A stretch of 40,000 bases of DNA from NCBI RefSeq assembly GCF_014764715.1, contig NZ_JACXXE010000012.1, positions 18,248-58,247 of the forward strand. The letters are read 5' to 3'. Source of the DNA: Bacillus sp. 28A-2 (lineage in GTDB: Bacteria; Bacillota; Bacilli; Bacillales; Bacillaceae). Of this stretch, positions 12,439 through 30,776 are shown in pieces. A program made the position numbers and the translations under genes. The notes under the pieces were generated by a model that saw only the letters and a list, made by a program, of their open reading frames with translations, was not told the DNA's origin and did not search any database. The first letter of the stretch is position 1; each line of letters begins with the position of its first letter.

Positions 12439-12451
12439 CAATCTTTTCATG

Positions 12452-12457
12452 TATAAT
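12452..12457 (+). promoter_or_regulatory. Candidate -10 box (TATAAT) for the toxin mRNA
   Basis: A perfect TATAAT preceded by TG lies about 70 nt upstream of the toxin ATG. No good -35 is present at 17 nt. Confidence 0.35.
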
Positions 12458-12527
12458 TGAGAACGTACAATTGAACGGCTTGCTCAAGGGTGTCTGGCTC
12501 ATCCCCGATAGGAAGGGGGTGATGCTC

Positions 12528-12611
12528 ATGTCAACGTTCCAAGCGATTTCCCTAATGCTTTTATTCGGGATGTTTATCCTTGCTTTGTTGACGTATATAA
12601 ACAAAAAATAG
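12528..12611 (+). CDS. Type I toxin, 27-aa hydrophobic peptide (Hol-Tox / BsrE-BsrH-like)
   Basis: SD GGAAGGGGGTGA lies 7 nt before ATG 12528. Translation is MSTFQAISLMLLFGMFILALLTYINKK, a single TM helix with a basic tail. It is on the opposite strand to all neighbours and resembles my recollection of B. subtilis BsrE. Confidence 0.65.
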   Translation: MSTFQAISLMLLFGMFILALLTYINKK

Positions 12612-12648
12612 ACTCCCCTTGAGCTTTGGACGGTTGAAGGGAAAGTCT
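12602..12648 (-). terminator. Intrinsic terminator of the candidate antitoxin RNA
   Basis: On the minus strand AGACTTTCCCTT (12648-12637) pairs with AAGGGGAGTCT (12620-12610): 11 bp with one bulge and a 16-nt loop. TTTTTT follows, which is the complement of the toxin's last Lys codons. Confidence 0.45.
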
Positions 12649-12730
12649 ATCCTTAAAACTATCTAATTGATAAGCCAGCCCCTTGAAGGGCCTCATTGTA
12701 CATTGCCGGGATGTTGACGCATCCTGGCTT
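12603..12730 (-). ncRNA. Candidate antisense antitoxin RNA (about 125 nt) complementary to the toxin mRNA 3' UTR
   Basis: It is bounded by a minus-strand promoter (TTTACA, 16 nt, TACAAT) and a minus-strand terminator. It contains no ORF. It fully overlaps the toxin 3' UTR and terminator. Confidence 0.4.
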
Positions 12731-12736
12731 CTTTTT
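12705..12736 (+). terminator. Intrinsic terminator of the toxin mRNA
   Basis: gccgggatg (12705-12713) pairs with catcctggc (12720-12728), including one G-U pair, around a 6-nt loop. TTCTTTTT follows. Confidence 0.6.
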
Positions 12737-12764
12737 ATTGTATGCAAATCACTTTGCATGTAAA
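12737..12764 (-). promoter_or_regulatory. Sigma-A-type promoter for the antisense RNA (TTTACA, 16 nt, TACAAT)
   Basis: On the minus strand the -35 TTTACA is at 12764-12759 and the -10 TACAAT at 12742-12737. The 16-nt spacer is itself a palindrome (tgcaaa tcac tttgca). Confidence 0.45.
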
Positions 12765-21568: not shown

Positions 21569-22872
21569 CAGCGTGACCTCCTTTCTCTGTTCGGGCGTGT
21601 ACGCTCTTTTGGTTTCTCTTTCAGATCGGTGACCTCATAATCATCTAGCGCATACCAGATGGCTGAAAAAGTATGAGGGTCAATCTGAAACTCGTCCTCT
21701 ATGATATTGCCGCGCTTGTCTGTCTTGTACGTGAGTGGCTGAAGCTCATAGATCGTGTTTTTACATGAATCGGAACAAATGATTTTCTTAAACCGCTTGA
21801 TCTTCTTGGTGTACTGCAAGCGTGATCCTTGGAACTTATGAGCGGCCACCATGTTGTATCCCATCTTGCGGAAATATGCGATTGTCTTCTGCTCATTATC
21901 AGCCTTGATCAGCTCTTTTGTTTCAACGAACTCTTTCAAGTCCTCGACAGTGACATCATCAGTCTTGCCACGATCGTAATACTCCCAATAGATATATAGA
22001 TACTTCTTCTCATGATCTACAGCCAACCTAACCACAGCGTTATATGAATCAACGAAACCAAAGTCCATACCTGCTCTAAGCAAAGGACGATTGATATTTG
22101 AGATGGCCAGCATGACATCTTCATGCGGCTGCACCTCGAATTGTGGTAGGACGCGAATTCCGTTAACGCCAAAATGACCTTTTCGGGCTATGCGATAAAG
22201 GTCGGGATCGTATTCTTTTAGTTCGTCCAGCTGCTTGATATAGCTCACAGGTAGAAATAGGTTATCTTCTGCCGTCGAGTGGTGATAGTACGTATCGTTG
22301 ATGGAGATCGTTCGCTCTTTGTATAACCTTTCATCATCCAGGATAAAGCGGTTGTTTTGATCGTCCTTAAAGAAGTGACGGTATGTCCAGTTGTCTTGGC
22401 CAACAGGGTTCGTCGATAGAATCATGTGCAGCTGTAACGTTGGATGACGCAAACGACCAAGCAGCTCCTTGAATCCCTCGTACTTCACTTCTGAACATTC
22501 CTCAATCCAAATAATCGAGATGTTGTTGATCGACTTCAGCTTGGCTGGCTTGTCCAAACCTTTGAAAATGATCCGGCTGCCGTTATGGAATTTAAGCATG
22601 AGCGGTGATGTCCGGCACTGAATGACATGATCGAGTCCAAGATCATTCACGATCTCTTCAAACAGCGAAAAGGTTGAATCCCTGTGTGTGTCATAGACTT
22701 CACGAATCACAAGGGCTGTCCTCTTTTCATCCAGTAACTTTAAGATGAGTTTCAACGCAATGTGATAGCTTTTAGATGATCCATAACCACCCACCAAGAA
22801 CTGAAACTTCTGATCCCAGTCAAAAAGAAAGTCCTCAAAGTGTGGATTGACCTCTTTTTCCATCAGTTGCAT
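21568..22872 (-). CDS. xtmB: Terminase large subunit (PBSX XtmB family)
   Basis: 434-aa ORF with a Walker-A-like GGYGSSKS near the N-terminus. It lies between terS and the portal gene. Confidence 0.9.
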
Positions 22873-23756
22873 CAGCCATCACCTTTTTTCTTTGCTCTCT
22901 TTATAGTAATTTGAACCGAATCATCGACAGGTCGAGCGGTGATCCGCTCCAGCTCTGCTTCTCTCGTTCGGTTTGCAAGATCAAGACCACGCAGCCTCAA
23001 TTCATGCTCTGACATAGTTTTCATTATGTCGTGTTTCTGCCTAATGGCTTTAAGACGCTTGTCTGTTACTCGCGTCAATGCTTCCTCTATTTCAAGGATG
23101 CGGTCAATCACAGGTAATTGAGTTTCTTCCACCTCAGTGACTACAAGACGTTCATTGATAATTGGAACGTATTTAACAACACCATTCTCGCTTGTCGAAG
23201 GTGCGACATCTTTTGTTTTCCTAAGTTGCTGAAGAACACGTCGCTGATTATCGGTTAAACCATTTTCATACTTCATGATCCTGTGCATCATGCGCCGCTC
23301 TCGAATACTAAGCTCACGTATGGTCAATTCAATTTGATAGAGCGGATCAGTCTCAATCTGCTCAAAGAGCTCCTTTTCTGTGTCGTCCATATAATCGAAC
23401 AAAATAGATTCATATTCACCTGTCCGCACAGAATTTCTGTTTCCTTTTGGAGCACCACCAGTATTCCCTTTAGCATTTTGGTTACCTGGCGGTGCTTTAC
23501 CACCTTTATTCCCTTTGGCGTTTTTACTCCCTTTGGGAGCCCCAGGGCGTTTAGTAACGTTACCATTGGTTTTCTCTTTGGGTTTAGTAACGTTACCATT
23601 CAATTTCTCATCCCAAGAGTCTTGGTTCTTCCATTTGCGGATAAGCGATTGTGAACACTCTAATTCTTCAGCAATGTCTTTCAGCAAACGGGTTCCGTTG
23701 CTTTCTTTCCACAATTGGAACGCCTGATCTCTTTTGGGATTTCGCGGTCTAGCCAT
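22872..23756 (-). CDS. xtmA: Terminase small subunit
   Basis: 294-aa ORF. It has an N-terminal HTH ([25 protein letters not shown]), a Gly/Asn/Lys-rich linker and a coiled-coil C-terminus. A strong SD is present. Confidence 0.8.
23549..23600. repeat. Two exact 19-bp direct repeats (GTTTAGTAACGTTACCATT) inside terS
   Basis: The copies are at 23549-23567 and 23582-23600. Each has the 10-bp palindrome GTAACGTTAC at its core. Confidence 0.9.
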
Positions 23757-23802
23757 TACATATCACCCACCTCCGAACTGCTTAATTAAGTTTGAGTTGT
23801 TT

Positions 23803-24051
23803 TCAAATTTCATCGTTCTTGAGTAAATACATTTCTAGCTCAATGAGTTTTTTCAAGTCTTCCACAGTAGACAATTTGATGTTTCCTGCTTTAAAGTCTC
23901 TGACCCATTGAGCAATAGCCGCCTGCGTGATTTTTCTTAAATTCGCAGTGGCTTTCTCTATGTCTTCAGCTTGTTCAGCCTGTAATAAAAGTAGTATTTC
24001 TTCTCTTTCTTCATCATAACGAGAACAAATGTTCTTATTATCTGTTGTCAT
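23803..24051 (-). CDS. First gene of the late operon, unknown function
   Basis: 82-aa ORF with SD GGAGGACAGGGAGA before the ATG. The protein is predicted helical and acidic. Confidence 0.45.
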   Translation of the reverse strand: MTTDNKNICSRYDEEREEILLLLQAEQAEDIEKATANLRKITQAAIAQWVRDFKAGNIKLSTVEDLKKLIELEMYLLKNDEI

Positions 24052-24073
24052 TCTCCCTGTCCTCCATTACAAT
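24045..24073 (+). promoter_or_regulatory. Near-consensus sigma-A promoter on the plus strand (TTGTCA, 17 nt, TACAAT)
   Basis: The -35 is at 24045-24050 and the -10 at 24068-24073, with an exact 17-nt spacer. The spacer is the complement of the SD of the 82-aa gene. Confidence 0.5.
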
Positions 24074-24079
24074 ATGGTT

Positions 24080-24192
24080 TGAGAGCGTGATATTTTCCCA
24101 CAAACGCGGCCGCGTCTTGATCACGCTCTTGGGCAGGGAGTTTCTTTCTTTGCCTTTGAAAGGGAGGGTGTTGTCAGCACCCTCTTTTTTTA
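24080..24192 (+). ncRNA. Candidate antisense sRNA of about 110 nt at the early/late junction
   Basis: It runs from the plus-strand promoter above to a canonical plus-strand terminator. There is no plus-strand ORF (ATG GTT TGA only). Predicted internal stem-loops are present. Confidence 0.4.
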
Positions 24193-24195
24193 TTT
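24164..24195 (+). terminator. Canonical intrinsic terminator oriented on the plus strand
   Basis: gagggtg (24164-24170) pairs with caccctc (24178-24184) around a 7-nt loop, then TTTTTTTATTT. On the minus strand the same hairpin has no U-tract. Confidence 0.6.
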
Positions 24196-25471
24196 ACAAC
24201 GAGTCAACAAGCTCTGGAGTGATGCCTGTGAATTCCGTGAATCGCTTCTTAATAACGTCACAGAAATACGGATCAAGTTCTAATAGAAAAGCTTCTCTAT
24301 CCGTTTGCTCACAAGTCATAAGAGTTGAGCCGCTACCTCCAAAGAAATCTACCACTCTATCACCTTTTTTACTGTTGTTACTTAATGGAATATTTATCAG
24401 TTCAAGTGGTTTTTGTGTTGGATGAACATATTTTGAAACGTCACCACGCGAAACTTCCCATACAGTTGCTGGACCCGTTTCTTCTGTTAAATCAGTTCTC
24501 CAAACTGTAACTTGCTTTTTATCACCATACCAATGTGGTGAGCACCCCTTTTTGAATGCATAGAAAACAGGCTCATGCATATATCGATATTGGCCCCACC
24601 CAAATGTAGCTGAATTTTTCACCCATATGCATTGCGACCTAACTTTTATACCAGCGTTTAGCATTTCTTTTTCAAAGTTTAATTGATAAGTAGGCGAGTG
24701 GAATACATAAATGGCTGCTTTCTCATTCATGACCCTAGAATAATTCAGGAATGTATCCCTTAAAAAAGTATCGAACTGTTCATCATCCATCGAATCATTC
24801 ATGATTGTTGCATGACCATCCTCATTTAATTTCTTACTATTACTTTTTACAGCTACATTATAAGGTGGATCAGTAATAACTAGATCGGCTTTATATCCCG
24901 ACATTAGACGATCAACGTCAGCTGCTTTTGTGGCATCACCGCACACTAAGGTGTGGCGGCCAAGCCGCCACACATCTCCATACTTTGTTTCAGGCTCACT
25001 GATTTGTGATAGAGCTTCAGAAACATCGAAGTCATCATCTTCTACAACTGTATTACCGTTGTCTACAGACAGGTTTTCTAGCAGCTCCTCATATTCTTCT
25101 TGAGAATACCCGATGATGTTTGTATCAAAATTGTTTTCCTTCAGCTCTGATAAAAGAGCCTCTAGTTTTTCCTCATCCCAATCGCCTTCAATTTTGTTTA
25201 ATGCAATATTGAGCGCCTTCTCTTCTTTTTCGTTCAAAGAAACCACAGACACTTTGATTTCAGTTGGGTTCGATTCTAATAAGATTTTGAACCTTTGATG
25301 TCCACCTACTAAATTACCTGTCTTCTCGTTCCAGATGAGCGGATCAATATATCCGAAATGCTCTATCGACGCTTTCAACTCTTCGTATGCTTTGTCTCCT
25401 GGTTTCAGATCAACACGTGGATGATAGGCAGCGGGATTTATTTGACTGACGGGTATATCTTTTATAATCAA
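24194..25471 (-). CDS. ParB-like nuclease domain fused to an N6/N4 DNA methyltransferase (beta class)
   Basis: The N-terminal ParB-like block carries GGHQRF. The MTase motifs are ITDPPYN (IV) followed later by VVDFFGGSGST (I). The start is set at TTG 25471, 6 nt after GAGGTG, giving MIIKDIPVSQINP, parallel to the paralog's MNIKTIPVHKINP. Confidence 0.85.
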   Translation of the reverse strand: MIIKDIPVSQINPAAYHPRVDLKPGDKAYEELKASIEHFGYIDPLIWNEKTGNLVGGHQRFKILLESNPTEIKVSVVSLNEKEEKALNIALNKIEGDWDEEKLEALLSELKENNFDTNIIGYSQEEYEELLENLSVDNGNTVVEDDDFDVSEALSQISEPETKYGDVWRLGRHTLVCGDATKAADVDRLMSGYKADLVITDPPYNVAVKSNSKKLNEDGHATIMNDSMDDEQFDTFLRDTFLNYSRVMNEKAAIYVFHSPTYQLNFEKEMLNAGIKVRSQCIWVKNSATFGWGQYRYMHEPVFYAFKKGCSPHWYGDKKQVTVWRTDLTEETGPATVWEVSRGDVSKYVHPTQKPLELINIPLSNNSKKGDRVVDFFGGSGSTLMTCEQTDREAFLLELDPYFCDVIKKRFTEFTGITPELVDSL

Positions 25472-25503
25472 TTGAAACACCTCTTGTATTATTTCATGTT
25501 GTT

Positions 25504-26526
25504 TTACTTAAACCATTGCAAATGTATCTGTTCCGCGATCCGCTTCATCATCACTGGAGGCACGCTCATACCACAGACATACTGCGTTGATGCATCCATA
25601 AAGTCATAATCCAACGGAAAAGATTGCATCAGAATAATATCCCTTGTTGAGATGTAATATGGTTCGTCGTATCTAATAAAGACCGAACCACTTGCAAGTG
25701 TTGGCGGAACTAAACTGTTTTTCACTAATACTGTATTGAAATTCCGCTCTTTACCTTCTGTTCGTTTAGTTATGTCTCCAATGTTGCCGTCAGATGGCTG
25801 CCGCTTAATCCATCTTTTATACGTTTTACTCGATTCATTCAGCCTTGACCCATGTCCACTTCTAAACTCTCCATATGTGATCGGTGGTTCATTGAAAGCC
25901 AATTTCAATGGTGGTAAGTTCAGGTCCTTTCTGCGGCCAATGAAAAAGACCCGCTCTCTTCTCTGCGGGACTCCCATTGTGGCAGCGTTCAGCAAGAACA
26001 GCTGAACGTCATACCCTATTTCTTTTGCACGCTCTATGACAAGTTTCACATACCCTTTAGCTTTTCCTTTGATCATGCCGCTTACGTTCTCAGCTACAAA
26101 GATTTTAGGCTTCAAACGTTCTACAGCATCTAGGTAATGAAAGAACAGATCGTCTAGTTTTTGGACAGCTTGGCCCTCTCTGAACGCCTTTTCTCTTCCC
26201 CAATCCTCTTCTCTTTTTCCGGCCGTTGAAAACACACTGCATGGCGGCGATCCGTCAAACACATCAAGATTCATGAGTTCTTCAGGAAGATCGGAGAGCG
26301 GGATCTGATTAAACTCTCGAATGTCCATGAGATAAGGATATTTCGGCTTGTGATTCTTTTTATAGATTTTCATCATTTGCGGATCGATCTCACAGTTTCC
26401 CAGCAATTCAAACCCTGCTAATTTGTAGCCCATTGATGAGCCGCCACCGCATGAGAATGTACTGAACACTTTCAACCCATTGGAAGAGATGTTTTTAAGA
26501 TCACTCAATTTCCATCTATAGTTCAT
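25504..26526 (-). CDS. DNA (cytosine-5) methyltransferase
   Basis: Motifs FSCGGGSSMGY (I), GSPPCSVFS (IV), AENV (VI) and QRRERVFFIG (VIII) are all present in a 340-aa ORF. Confidence 0.9.
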   Translation of the reverse strand: MNYRWKLSDLKNISSNGLKVFSTFSCGGGSSMGYKLAGFELLGNCEIDPQMMKIYKKNHKPKYPYLMDIREFNQIPLSDLPEELMNLDVFDGSPPCSVFSTAGKREEDWGREKAFREGQAVQKLDDLFFHYLDAVERLKPKIFVAENVSGMIKGKAKGYVKLVIERAKEIGYDVQLFLLNAATMGVPQRRERVFFIGRRKDLNLPPLKLAFNEPPITYGEFRSGHGSRLNESSKTYKRWIKRQPSDGNIGDITKRTEGKERNFNTVLVKNSLVPPTLASGSVFIRYDEPYYISTRDIILMQSFPLDYDFMDASTQYVCGMSVPPVMMKRIAEQIHLQWFK

Positions 26527-30211: not shown

Positions 30212-30248
30212 TATACAAAAACAGCACTCATATGATTCCGAGTGCTGT
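30212..30248 (-). terminator. Intrinsic terminator overlapping the ArpU stop codon
   Basis: A perfect 9-bp stem (acagcactc 30221-30229 / gagtgctgt 30240-30248) with a 10-nt loop is followed by a TTTTT run (its first T is the last stem base) on the minus strand. Confidence 0.6.
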
Positions 30249-30611
30249 TGAAAGATTAAACGTCGCTTGCTTCTTCAATTTGTAATACCGGTCTTTCTTC
30301 AGACCCAGTTCTTCACACACCTCCAAATCCTTCACCACACGTGATGTCAGGTATTTCATACGGATGATGTCTTGCTCAATTTCATCTAGGCTGTTTTCTA
30401 GCGCTCTTTCTATCTGCCGGACCTTCAGTTCGTTTAAAGCTTCCTGGTTCCTGAGAGAAGGAAAAAGGCCTGTTGCGCCGTTTGCCTCCTGTTCCTTTCT
30501 GTTTTCTTCCTTCACCTTAAGGGCTCTATAAACCTTCAGCTCCTTGATCAGAGCATTCCGGACTTGTTTCTCATCGATCCCTGGCAGTAAACACAATTGT
30601 TCAGCTCTCAT
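30228..30611 (-). CDS. arpU: ArpU-family phage late transcriptional regulator
   Basis: 127 aa from ATG 30611, 9 nt after AGGAGGAGG. The C-terminal LDEIEQDIIRMKYL...GLKKDRYYKLKKQA fits the ArpU/sigma-region-4-like pattern (recall). Confidence 0.65.
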   Translation of the reverse strand: MRAEQLCLLPGIDEKQVRNALIKELKVYRALKVKEENRKEQEANGATGLFPSLRNQEALNELKVRQIERALENSLDEIEQDIIRMKYLTSRVVKDLEVCEELGLKKDRYYKLKKQATFNLSTALGII

Positions 30612-30776
30612 GCTTCTCAACCTCCTCCTATAAACAATGAAAGACATAAACAAACACTAATCTCTTATACAAATTCGAAAGTCTAAATTTGCGCATAAAA
30701 ATAAAAAAATTAAAGACTTATAAGTTAATAAACCCTTTAGTAAACTAAAAATAAATTTAGCACTGGAGGGAAATCA

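Follow-up and report, generated by a model that had tools for sequence, protein, structure and literature searches.

Within a 40,000-nucleotide (nt) stretch of the Bacillus sp. 28A-2 genome (contig NZ_JACXXE010000012.1, positions 18,248 to 58,247; hereafter the window), a prophage carries a 142-bp gap (24052 to 24193) between its DNA methyltransferase genes and the gene for an 82-amino-acid (aa) protein that precedes the packaging gene terS. The plus strand from 24045 to 24191, opposite to all of the real genes that flank it, is probably best explained as a complete small transcription unit whose product, a small RNA (sRNA), acts in cis as a brake on sense read-through. Judged from sequence, the element is a previously undescribed and widespread RNA family of the temperate phages of Bacillota. 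Its signals make it very likely that the sRNA is actually made; that its main role is to restrain sense transcription into the 82-aa gene and the packaging genes is a proposal to which we give slightly less than an even chance.

A first-pass annotation of the window had pointed out the gap and proposed in it an independent opposite-strand RNA gene of about 110 nt at the boundary between the methyltransferase and packaging genes. Both stand, the RNA gene being supported by a conserved promoter, compensatory stems, a G·U strand bias, a T tail and the scores of a covariance model, R1. The promoter, fold, strand, terminator and synteny were each established by computation. Coordinates of all features are collected in Table 1.

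A conserved promoter on the strand opposite to the packaging genes

The promoter, TTGTCA-17-TACAAT, scored 10/12 in a promoter scan and is as close to the consensus as the first-pass annotation had claimed. Only five sites in the 40-kb window reach this score on both strands, the sRNA promoter included, and promoter-like sites are rarer in the window than in shuffled sequences (16 versus 47 ± 8; 26 versus 34.5 ± 6.6). The start codon of the 82-aa open reading frame (ORF) is the ATG at 24051 to 24049 on the minus strand, with its Shine-Dalgarno sequence at 24065 to 24061. The promoter spacer (24051 to 24067) holds the complement of the latter, CCTCC, at 24061 to 24065, a complementarity that had also been noticed in the first pass.

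The promoter is conserved position by position. Across 62 unique variants of the element, the −10 hexamer has T in 62, A in 61, any base at position 3, A in 55, A in 60, and T in 62. The −35 hexamer begins with TTG in 55 to 60 variants and always lies over the start-codon region (CATTG). The spacer measures 17 nt in 50 variants, and 6 to 8 nt separate the end of the −10 hexamer from the first base of the first stem-loop in 60. Scores of at least 9/12 were found for 54 of the 62 variants versus about 1.5% of shuffles. The family profile, with T1, A2, and T6 near-invariant and position 3 free, fits the information content of sigma-70/sigma-A promoters. The two hexamers, a spacing of 16 to 18 nt, and conservation that peaks at T1, A2, and T6 of the −10 hexamer thus point to a promoter of the sigma-70/sigma-A type. 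Constraints on the coding or translation of the opposite gene fail to explain the −10 pattern, because position 3 is free and the −10 hexamer lies upstream of the sense Shine-Dalgarno sequence.

An inverted repeat surrounds the −10 hexamer throughout the family (e.g., TTTCC..GGAAA, ACCATC..GATGGT, and CCAAT..ATTGG). Its stem reaches 5 bp or more in 47% of variants versus 13% of shuffles, and the copy in the window (24064 to 24077) has only 4 bp, CCAT..ATGG. The weak, covarying signal is ambiguous as to strand. On the sense mRNA it may form a small hairpin 5′ of the Shine-Dalgarno sequence; alternatively, it may be a feature of the DNA.

The predicted RNA has three stem-loops, the last of which is an intrinsic terminator

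RNAfold gave the sRNA in the window a minimum free energy of −51.8 kcal/mol (z −5.8) with three stem-loops, SL1 to SL3. The internal loop of SL1 is asymmetric, with 12 nt on the 5′ side and 4 nt on the 3′ side, and its apex is a perfect palindrome, ACGCGGCCGCGT (24104 to 24115). SL3 comprises the hairpin GAGGGTG(T)-TGTCA-(G)CACCCTC at 24164 to 24184 and a run of seven T residues at 24185 to 24191, and so confirms the canonical terminator that had been proposed there. A GC-rich hairpin is followed by a U tract on the transcribed strand. On the minus strand the hairpin is followed by CCCTTTCAAAG / CCCTTTC and is therefore without a U tract; the terminator is oriented for the plus strand, as the first reading of the sequence had it. 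SL3 was missing from a program's terminator scan of the window. We attribute this omission to an extension of the stem by upstream AAAGG pairing with the T run, which consumes the tail; RNAfold draws a 15-bp stem that includes this pairing.

The statement that no plus-strand ORF lies in this region needs correction, since a mechanical ORF of 126 aa with a TTG start spans it (24045 to 24425). We rejected this ORF as a gene, given the 1- and 2-nt insertions or deletions among close relatives. No reading frame is conserved, because the RNA length varies from 105 to 111 nt.

The element is more conserved than its surroundings

The 82-aa protein is identical to one recorded as hypothetical in Bacillus sp. 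28A-2. Relatives of it occur in the Bacillus pumilus group, and we compared the prophage loci that carry them. The intergenic element is about 90 to 100% identical among close relatives, the protein identity of the downstream ORF falls to 62 to 70%, and the upstream sequences are unrelated. Mean pairwise identity is 0.90 to 1.0 inside the element, 0.65 to 0.85 in the downstream ORF, and 0.41 to 0.55 just upstream. The edge of the conserved block is exactly the T tract, and the element persists behind at least five upstream contexts, including an N6 methyltransferase gene, a C5 methyltransferase gene, and a divergent gene (locus L017). In three loci (L001, L006, and L052) the unrelated upstream gene has its own sense terminator, and the sRNA hairpin is still retained. 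Among 24 unique close versions, variable columns make up 71% of the discriminator, 58 to 60% of the loops, and 75% of the linker, compared with 17% of the hexamers and 0 to 9% of the SL1 and SL3 stems. By these sequence comparisons, the element is conserved beyond chance.

Two loci, L031 and L037, have a terS with 80 to 85% identity and contain neither the 82-aa ORF nor the element. The element was on this account rejected as a packaging site (pac or cos) or an essential late promoter. Two others, L004 (3001 to 3100) and L034 (1545 to 1700), are deletion remnants, which retain a mutated SL3 and have lost SL1, the promoter, and the first half of the 82-aa ORF. Therefore, the RNA and the 82-aa ORF decay together. 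Some relatives, namely L017 (3254 to 3529) and L004 (3233 to 3529), have an inserted gene in reverse orientation (91 to 98 aa) that separates the 82-aa ORF from terS. Transcription of this gene would pass through the 82-aa ORF in the antisense direction, toward the sRNA terminator.

The same RNA occurs in distant phages

Searching deposited phages with the 82-aa protein (tblastn) yielded matches in Enterococcus phages phiFL3A and phiEf11, Bacillus thuringiensis phage BMBtp14, a Parageobacillus phage, and a Latilactobacillus phage. In three of them (phiFL3A, BMBtp14, and the Parageobacillus phage), the homologue follows a gap of about 135 nt that has the same layout and a different sequence. 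Their promoters, on the strand opposite to the gene, are TTGTAG-17-TATAAT, TTGAAA-17-TATGAT, and TTGAAA-18-TAAGAT, each with the −35 hexamer over the start-codon region. At 6 to 8 nt past the −10 hexamer there is a perfect stem of 10 to 11 bp with an asymmetric loop and a GC palindrome, and 3′ of this SL1-like stem come a short hairpin and then a terminator hairpin with a T tail.

We then fetched 80 IMG/VR loci through an alignment of the 82-aa protein family. A strict test (outer stem, ≥8 bp; perfect palindrome, ≥10 nt) was passed by 71 of 75 unique upstream regions. The covariance model R1, built from 42 representatives (alignment A3), matched 81 of 83 loci at 55 to 92 bits, always on the strand opposite to the gene. 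Contig ends truncate the two loci that were missed, so that all 81 testable loci were matched. On the gene strand R1 gave at most 28 bits, and in seven control loci it found nothing. The window, whose sequence was among those in the model, scored 80.9 bits (E = 1.5e-19) at 24079 to 24195 on the plus strand versus 14.4 bits on the minus strand. A second match in the window (12670 to 12737, 23 bits) was rejected, being only the similar terminator apex of a bsrE-like toxin gene.

In a reverse search by the RNA motif alone, 55 of 120 pattern matches were genuine copies; 49 of these adjoin a gene of the 82-aa family. In total, the RNA is present in at least 86 further temperate-phage loci from Bacillus, Enterococcus, and relatives. 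The partner gene itself was matched by 406 protein clusters (Bacillus, Lysinibacillus, Paenibacillus, Brevibacillus, Enterococcus, and others). Searching the DNA of deposited phages, near and distant, with the window sequence returned only an unrelated terS match. The window, phiFL3A, BMBtp14, and Parageobacillus members had no match in Rfam 15, where the best noise on the element was STnc390 (15.8 bits) and suhB (15.1 bits) against thresholds of 41 to 50.

Covariation supports the stems and assigns the RNA to the plus strand

Pairs were counted and RNAalifold was run on a MAFFT alignment, in which SL2 could not be aligned. Paired cells amounted to 97.1% versus 82.5% in shuffles, and cells changed on both sides numbered 154 versus 42.6. 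Compensatory changes were found at 15 of 20 pairs (7 of 10 in the SL1 outer stem and 8 of 10 in SL3). None of 500 shuffles attained the observed covariation score, and slid controls were at most 62% paired. The element thus has the compensatory pairs, and lacks the conserved frame, of a structured noncoding RNA, and its covariation suffices to define a new RNA family. SL2 was found as a hairpin in 57 of 58 unique variants, with many different stems.

Three features bear on the strand. First, a model-based alignment of 72 unique sequences gave an overall G·U:A·C ratio of 172:7, which favors the plus strand. SL1 contributed 683 Watson-Crick pairs, 23 G·U pairs (all at the terminal pair), and 4 A·C pairs; SL3 contributed 551, 149 (68 of them the conserved apical U·G, which is retained in 68 of 70 variants), and 3, respectively. 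Second, SL2 is more stable on the plus strand of the window by 57 to 0, with mean energies of −9.3 versus −5.5 kcal/mol. Third, SL3 is followed on the RNA strand by a T tail (5 or more T among the next 8 nt) in 67 of 70 variants; only 12 of the 70 have a tail that could serve the other strand, always in addition. We assign the RNA to the plus strand because of the pair ratio, SL2 stability, and the strand of the T tail.

It could be argued that the structure belongs instead to the sense (minus-strand) transcript, as a leader or attenuator in which CUCCCUG (24140 to 24134) pairs with CAGGGAG (24059 to 24053) near the ribosome-binding site (RBS). The minus strand folds well too (z −5.8), this long-range helix included; SL1 forms equally on both strands, and the inverted repeat flanking the −10 hexamer, with its excess of stems of at least 5 bp, would suit a sense leader. 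However, such a leader would leave the conserved TAnAAT and TTG unexplained, and the promoter scan found no sense promoter inside the element. The low R1 score on the minus strand also speaks against it. A leader with this anti-Shine-Dalgarno helix was rejected on the G·U:A·C ratio, on the energies of SL2, which is always weaker on the sense strand, and on uncompensated breaks, the seventh long-range pair being broken in common variants (TAAGGGAG and CAAGGGAG). We consider a sense-strand origin of the structure very improbable.

Least probable of all, to the point that we would hardly expect it, is a chance promoter beside a bidirectional terminator of the methyltransferase operon, or a type I antitoxin RNA. 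The other 10/12 promoter matches in the window, the 12 family members with tails on both sides of SL3, and the bsrE-like type I toxin locus that this prophage carries at another site would be in keeping with such an origin. A chance promoter would not be conserved position by position in 62 variants across genera, and the three loci whose upstream gene has a separate sense terminator would not keep the hairpin. As for an antitoxin, no small hydrophobic toxin ORF exists in 24045 to 24195 on either strand, so none overlaps the RNA, and the partner protein is hydrophilic.

The RNA gene marks the entry of the packaging module

In 75 of 80 loci a ParB or methyltransferase gene is found within 1.2 kb upstream, and its end is often about 140 nt from the small ORF; terS lies downstream in 73 of 80. 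The order of methyltransferase/ParB gene, RNA on the opposite strand, small ORF, and terS is conserved in 73 to 75 of the 80 loci. In three loci (L160, L193, and L212) an unrelated ORF of 66 to 71 aa replaces the 82-aa gene before terS. In L148, the RNA comes directly after a gene for a sigma-70 region-4 (LtrA-like) protein and has a methyltransferase-HNH pair on its other side. In all four of these loci the −35 hexamer is again over the start-codon region of the following gene. The constant feature is the position at the entry of the packaging module and not the identity of the partner, because replacement ORFs keep the placement.

The 82-aa protein is hydrophilic, charged, and helical, and its AlphaFold2 (AF2) model consists of two helices (pLDDT, 74.6). 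It has no Pfam family, and a Foldseek search of the AF2 model against the PDB gave no match, Rop included. We therefore rejected the idea that it is a Rop-like protein or another known RNA or DNA binder.

A proposed brake on read-through, and features that it does not explain

Gram-positive temperate phages are known to turn on their packaging and lysis genes through Ltr activators. How these genes are guarded against early leakage is poorly understood. The element is a concrete candidate for such leakage control, being a cross-genus sRNA gene located exactly at that boundary. From the computed features we infer transcription, its timing, its target, and repression as opposed to activation, as follows.

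Host RNA polymerase, using the sigma-A-type promoter, would start the RNA of about 111 nt at about 24081 constitutively, and the RNA would fold into its three stem-loops and end at its own intrinsic terminator. Polymerase at 24045 to 24080 would occupy the DNA of the RBS and start codon of the next gene, and the promoter would fire head-on into sense transcription coming from the methyltransferase genes. In most family members nothing ends that transcription in the sense direction. Two effects may follow. One would be promoter occupancy with polymerase collision. The other would be a perfect duplex of about 110 bp with the sense leader, open to double-strand-specific cleavage. The net outcome would be insulation, in that early or leaky read-through into the 82-aa gene and the packaging genes is lowered, and strong lytic transcription would override the block. 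The RNA cannot simply mask the RBS, because it stops about 28 nt before the ATG.

Several observations weigh against this proposal. The sRNA does not overlap the RBS, since its predicted 5′ end is upstream of the 82-aa ATG and only promoter DNA covers the RBS and start; simple occlusion of translation is excluded. Nor did we find any cognate-specific pairing in trans between the RNA and the partner's translation start (−20.3 kcal/mol for cognate versus −20.5 kcal/mol for noncognate pairs). Three family members are without a good T tail. Two loci, L002 (2980 to 3001) and L003, have an 82-aa homologue (43% identical) 20 nt after the ParB-methyltransferase gene, with no RNA gene. Therefore, the 82-aa protein can exist without the RNA, and its gene has no strict need for it.

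The structure also shows more constraint than a brake would call for. The nine inner pairs of SL1 contain no G·U (0 of about 650 cells), versus about 80 nonconserved G·U pairs in SL3. The SL1 tip is always a perfect palindrome, its center included, with 15 different palindromes in the family and GGCC, GCGC, TGCA, or CGCG as the central 4 nt. The SL3 apex (RYGU-U...-GCRY, with the U·G pair) is conserved from Enterococcus to Bacillus, beyond the needs of termination. In addition, the internal loop of SL1 keeps its asymmetry family-wide (9 to 15 nt on the 5′ side versus 2 to 6 nt on the 3′ side), and the lower stem is conserved in sequence (GAGA.AG / CT.TCTC). A plain antisense RNA would not need a G·U-free palindromic SL1, and this suggests further demands on the helix: that it must also form on the other strand or in DNA, or that it serves RNA dimerization or protein binding. 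The terminator of a toxin-like gene elsewhere in the window (12705 to 12728) shares the U·G-closed SL3 apex, AUGUU-GAC-GCAU, and the apical motif may be a general terminator feature of these phages or their hosts that is not specific to the RNA.

These features could be understood if the RNA is real and works mainly in trans, or as a structured RNA in a ribonucleoprotein bound by the small protein, terminase, or the ParB-methyltransferase. Through the palindromic SL1 tip, two molecules could pair with each other, or one could kiss the identical hairpin on the sense transcript. An SL1 that is free of G·U and palindromic to its central 4 nt in 15 variants, the SL3 motif kept across genera, the constant asymmetry of the internal loop, and the near-obligate coupling to a small ORF beside terS would all make sense in this scenario. 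However, the 82-aa protein has no known RNA-binding fold or family match, the partner ORF is swapped for an unrelated one in some loci, and no covarying trans target was found. Moreover, the fixed promoter site over the downstream translation start is most simply explained by action in cis. We regard a mainly trans-acting RNA as unlikely. A more specific version, to which we give still less credence, has the RNA use SL1 to dimerize, or to dock on the same hairpin where it forms in the sense transcript or in single-stranded DNA. The RNA and the small protein, ParB-methyltransferase, or terminase would then make up a checkpoint linking DNA methylation or early transcription to the onset of packaging. 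If true, Gram-positive temperate phages would have a new kind of early-to-late switch, one based on RNA.

A comparably doubtful alternative places the function in the DNA. The 10-bp inverted repeat and the palindrome would be sites for a protein (late activator, repressor, or methyltransferase), with promoter and terminator as an insulator and the RNA as a by-product. The strictly Watson-Crick SL1 with its sequence-conserved lower stem agrees with protein sites, and the palindromes resemble restriction or methylation sites, with DNA methyltransferase genes adjacent in 75 of 80 loci. The L148 element, directly after the LtrA-like gene, is where control sites of a late promoter are expected (PMC3753634). 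On the other hand, SL2 and SL3 covary through G·U pairs, which are meaningless in duplex DNA, and the outer stem changes freely in sequence while complementarity is kept, unlike protein half-sites. The palindrome is also off-center within the outer repeat, and its type showed no pattern with the type of the neighboring methyltransferase. Finally, the Ltr sites described so far are direct, not inverted, repeats (PMC3753634).

Relation to known regulators

A literature search on the PBSX late promoter and Xpf, xtmA antisense transcription, sRNAs of Bacillus and B. pumilus prophages, and antisense RNAs near terminase genes found no description of the element. The first-pass annotation knew of no equivalent in PBSX-like phages. 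None was found; the restriction to PBSX-like phages was too narrow, as the element is not PBSX-specific and is widespread in temperate phages of Bacillota. By analogy, the element would act like the cis-antisense RNAs of temperate phages (P22 sar, lambda OOP, and aQ) and resembles in form the antitoxin RNAs of Bacillus prophages, but it lacks the defining overlaps of both groups.

The sar RNA of P22 has a constitutive promoter inside the leader of a small regulatory gene, facing incoming transcription, and an intrinsic terminator. It is said, following work of Liao, Wu, and Susskind in 1987, to be an antisense regulator of about 69 nt for the antirepressor gene ant and to cover the ant RBS. 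The element shares with sar the convergent-promoter geometry, the short phage RNA, and the intrinsic terminator. Its RNA is longer, with three covarying stem-loops and a cross-genus distribution, and has no sequence or Rfam relation to sar. The comparison with sar made in the first-pass annotation thus survives for a promoter opposed to the leader and fails for the RBS. Complementarity of the sar type to RBS and start codon is absent, since the RNA is predicted to begin at about 24081 and only promoter DNA overlaps them.

Plasmid copy-control antisense RNAs, such as ColE1 RNA I (with Rop) and R1 CopA, act by loop-loop kissing. The element resembles them as a multi-stem-loop antisense to a structured leader, with an SL1 that forms identically on both strands and a gene for a small helical protein next to it. 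It differs from them in having no replication context and in a protein model without a Rop match, so kissing is only a lead.

The type I antitoxin RNAs of Bacillus prophages (SR4, SR5, and RatA) are sigma-A driven and structured, with lengths of 100 to 220 nt and intrinsic terminators, and overlap the 3′ end or RBS of a small hydrophobic toxin mRNA. Our element is likewise a prophage-borne, structured antisense RNA with an intrinsic terminator. In contrast, it has no such toxin ORF, and its partner is a hydrophilic, helical protein of 82 aa.

In lambda, OOP and aQ are small cis-encoded antisense RNAs with their own promoters, each holding down a developmental regulator; aQ lowers Q and hence the late genes, and OOP acts via duplex cleavage (PMC12197685). 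A small cis-encoded phage antisense RNA with its own promoter is also what we predict here. However, the lambda RNAs are sited differently, OOP across the 3′ end of cII and aQ inside Q; the element occupies a 5′ leader or intergenic site at the entry of the packaging genes. The hosts are Gram-positive, and there is no homology. A 2025 review of phage-derived sRNAs mentions none of Bacillus, Enterococcus, Listeria, or "Gram-positive" (PMC12197685), a gap that the RNA family would fill. In practice, prophage annotation could use the element to mark where the packaging module starts, and it may offer a handle on spontaneous induction and transduction.

Late promoters controlled by Ltr activators (RinA, ArpU, and LtrA to LtrC; PMC3753634) share the location of the element, at the boundary before terS, and in L148 the element follows an Ltr-like gene. 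They differ from it in kind: an Ltr site consists of short direct repeats on the sense strand, bound by the activator, immediately after the ltr gene and directly upstream of terS, and is followed by the late promoter (PMC3753634), whereas the element is an opposite-strand unit with inverted repeats. The element has no conserved direct repeats, and the Ltr-like gene of the window is 6 kb away. A candidate for an Ltr-dependent late promoter, and a likely Ltr site, is the motif of about 50 nt before terS, AAACAAACTCAAACTTAATTCAGCAGCTCGGAGGTGGGTGATATGTAATGGCT, which carries the CAAACT direct repeat. It also occurs in L031, L034, L037, and L040 and is kept with or without the RNA module. The 82-aa gene may perhaps lie upstream of the true late promoter, because the CAAACT motif persists in phages without the RNA and fits the published Ltr position. 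The first-pass annotation had called the 82-aa gene the first late gene. It may precede the true late promoter and so may not be the first late gene. Within the CAAACT motif, a two-codon mini-ORF (ATG TAA) overlaps the terS start codon.

Surrounding genes in the window

The features of the element and its neighbors are listed in Table 1. The methyltransferase stop codon (24194 to 24196) is 2 nt from the end of the sRNA T tract.

Table 1. Positions of the element and neighboring features in the window
Feature	Position	Strand	Remarks
−35 hexamer TTGTCA	24045–24050	+	Overlaps start codon and codons 2 and 3 of the 82-aa ORF
−10 hexamer TACAAT	24068–24073	+	Spacer of 17 nt
Predicted sRNA, about 111 nt	24081–24191	+	5′ end placed from the −10 position, 3′ end from the T tract
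SL1	24081–24130	+	Outer stem of 10 to 11 bp, (G)AGAGCGTGAT / ATCACGCTCT(T)
SL2	24131–24155	+	Hairpin GGGCAGGGAG / UUCUUUGCCU, G·U-rich
SL3, intrinsic terminator	24164–24191	+	Stem GAGGGTG/CACCCTC, U·G closing pair, loop UGUCA, T7
82-aa ORF (phrog_1476, function unassigned)	23803–24051	−	Partner gene; translation start under the sRNA promoter
CAAACT-like direct-repeat motif	23757–23802	−	Just before terS; context, outside the RNA
terS	22872–23756	−	terL and portal genes on the same strand
ParB_N + N6/N4 DNA methyltransferase gene	24194–25480	−	Convergent with the sRNA gene; upstream in the sense direction
C5 methyltransferase gene	25504–26526	−	
Ltr-like activator gene	30228–30653		phrog_248, weak DUF1492 match; about 6 kb upstream of the element

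The Ltr-like gene has its own terminator after it (30249 to 30220). Apparent accessory genes with no link to phage growth (27066 to 30653) separate it from the methyltransferase block. They encode a 327-aa protein with a signal-peptide-like N terminus, an SMI1/SUKH protein, a CotD-like spore-coat protein, and a phrog_17102 protein, whose gene is followed by a strong terminator (27103 to 27079).

The tail-gene region also holds a probable type I toxin-antitoxin locus (12444 to 12764). On the plus strand it has a promoter-like TTTTCA-16-TACAAT, a strong RBS, and a 27-aa hydrophobic ORF, MSTFQAISLMLLFGMFILALLTYINKK, which we take to be very like BsrE of B. subtilis. The terminator of this toxin-like gene is the one at 12705 to 12728 that shares the SL3 apex. 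A convergent minus-strand promoter, TTTACA-16-TACAAT (12764 to 12737), could make an SR5-like antitoxin RNA.

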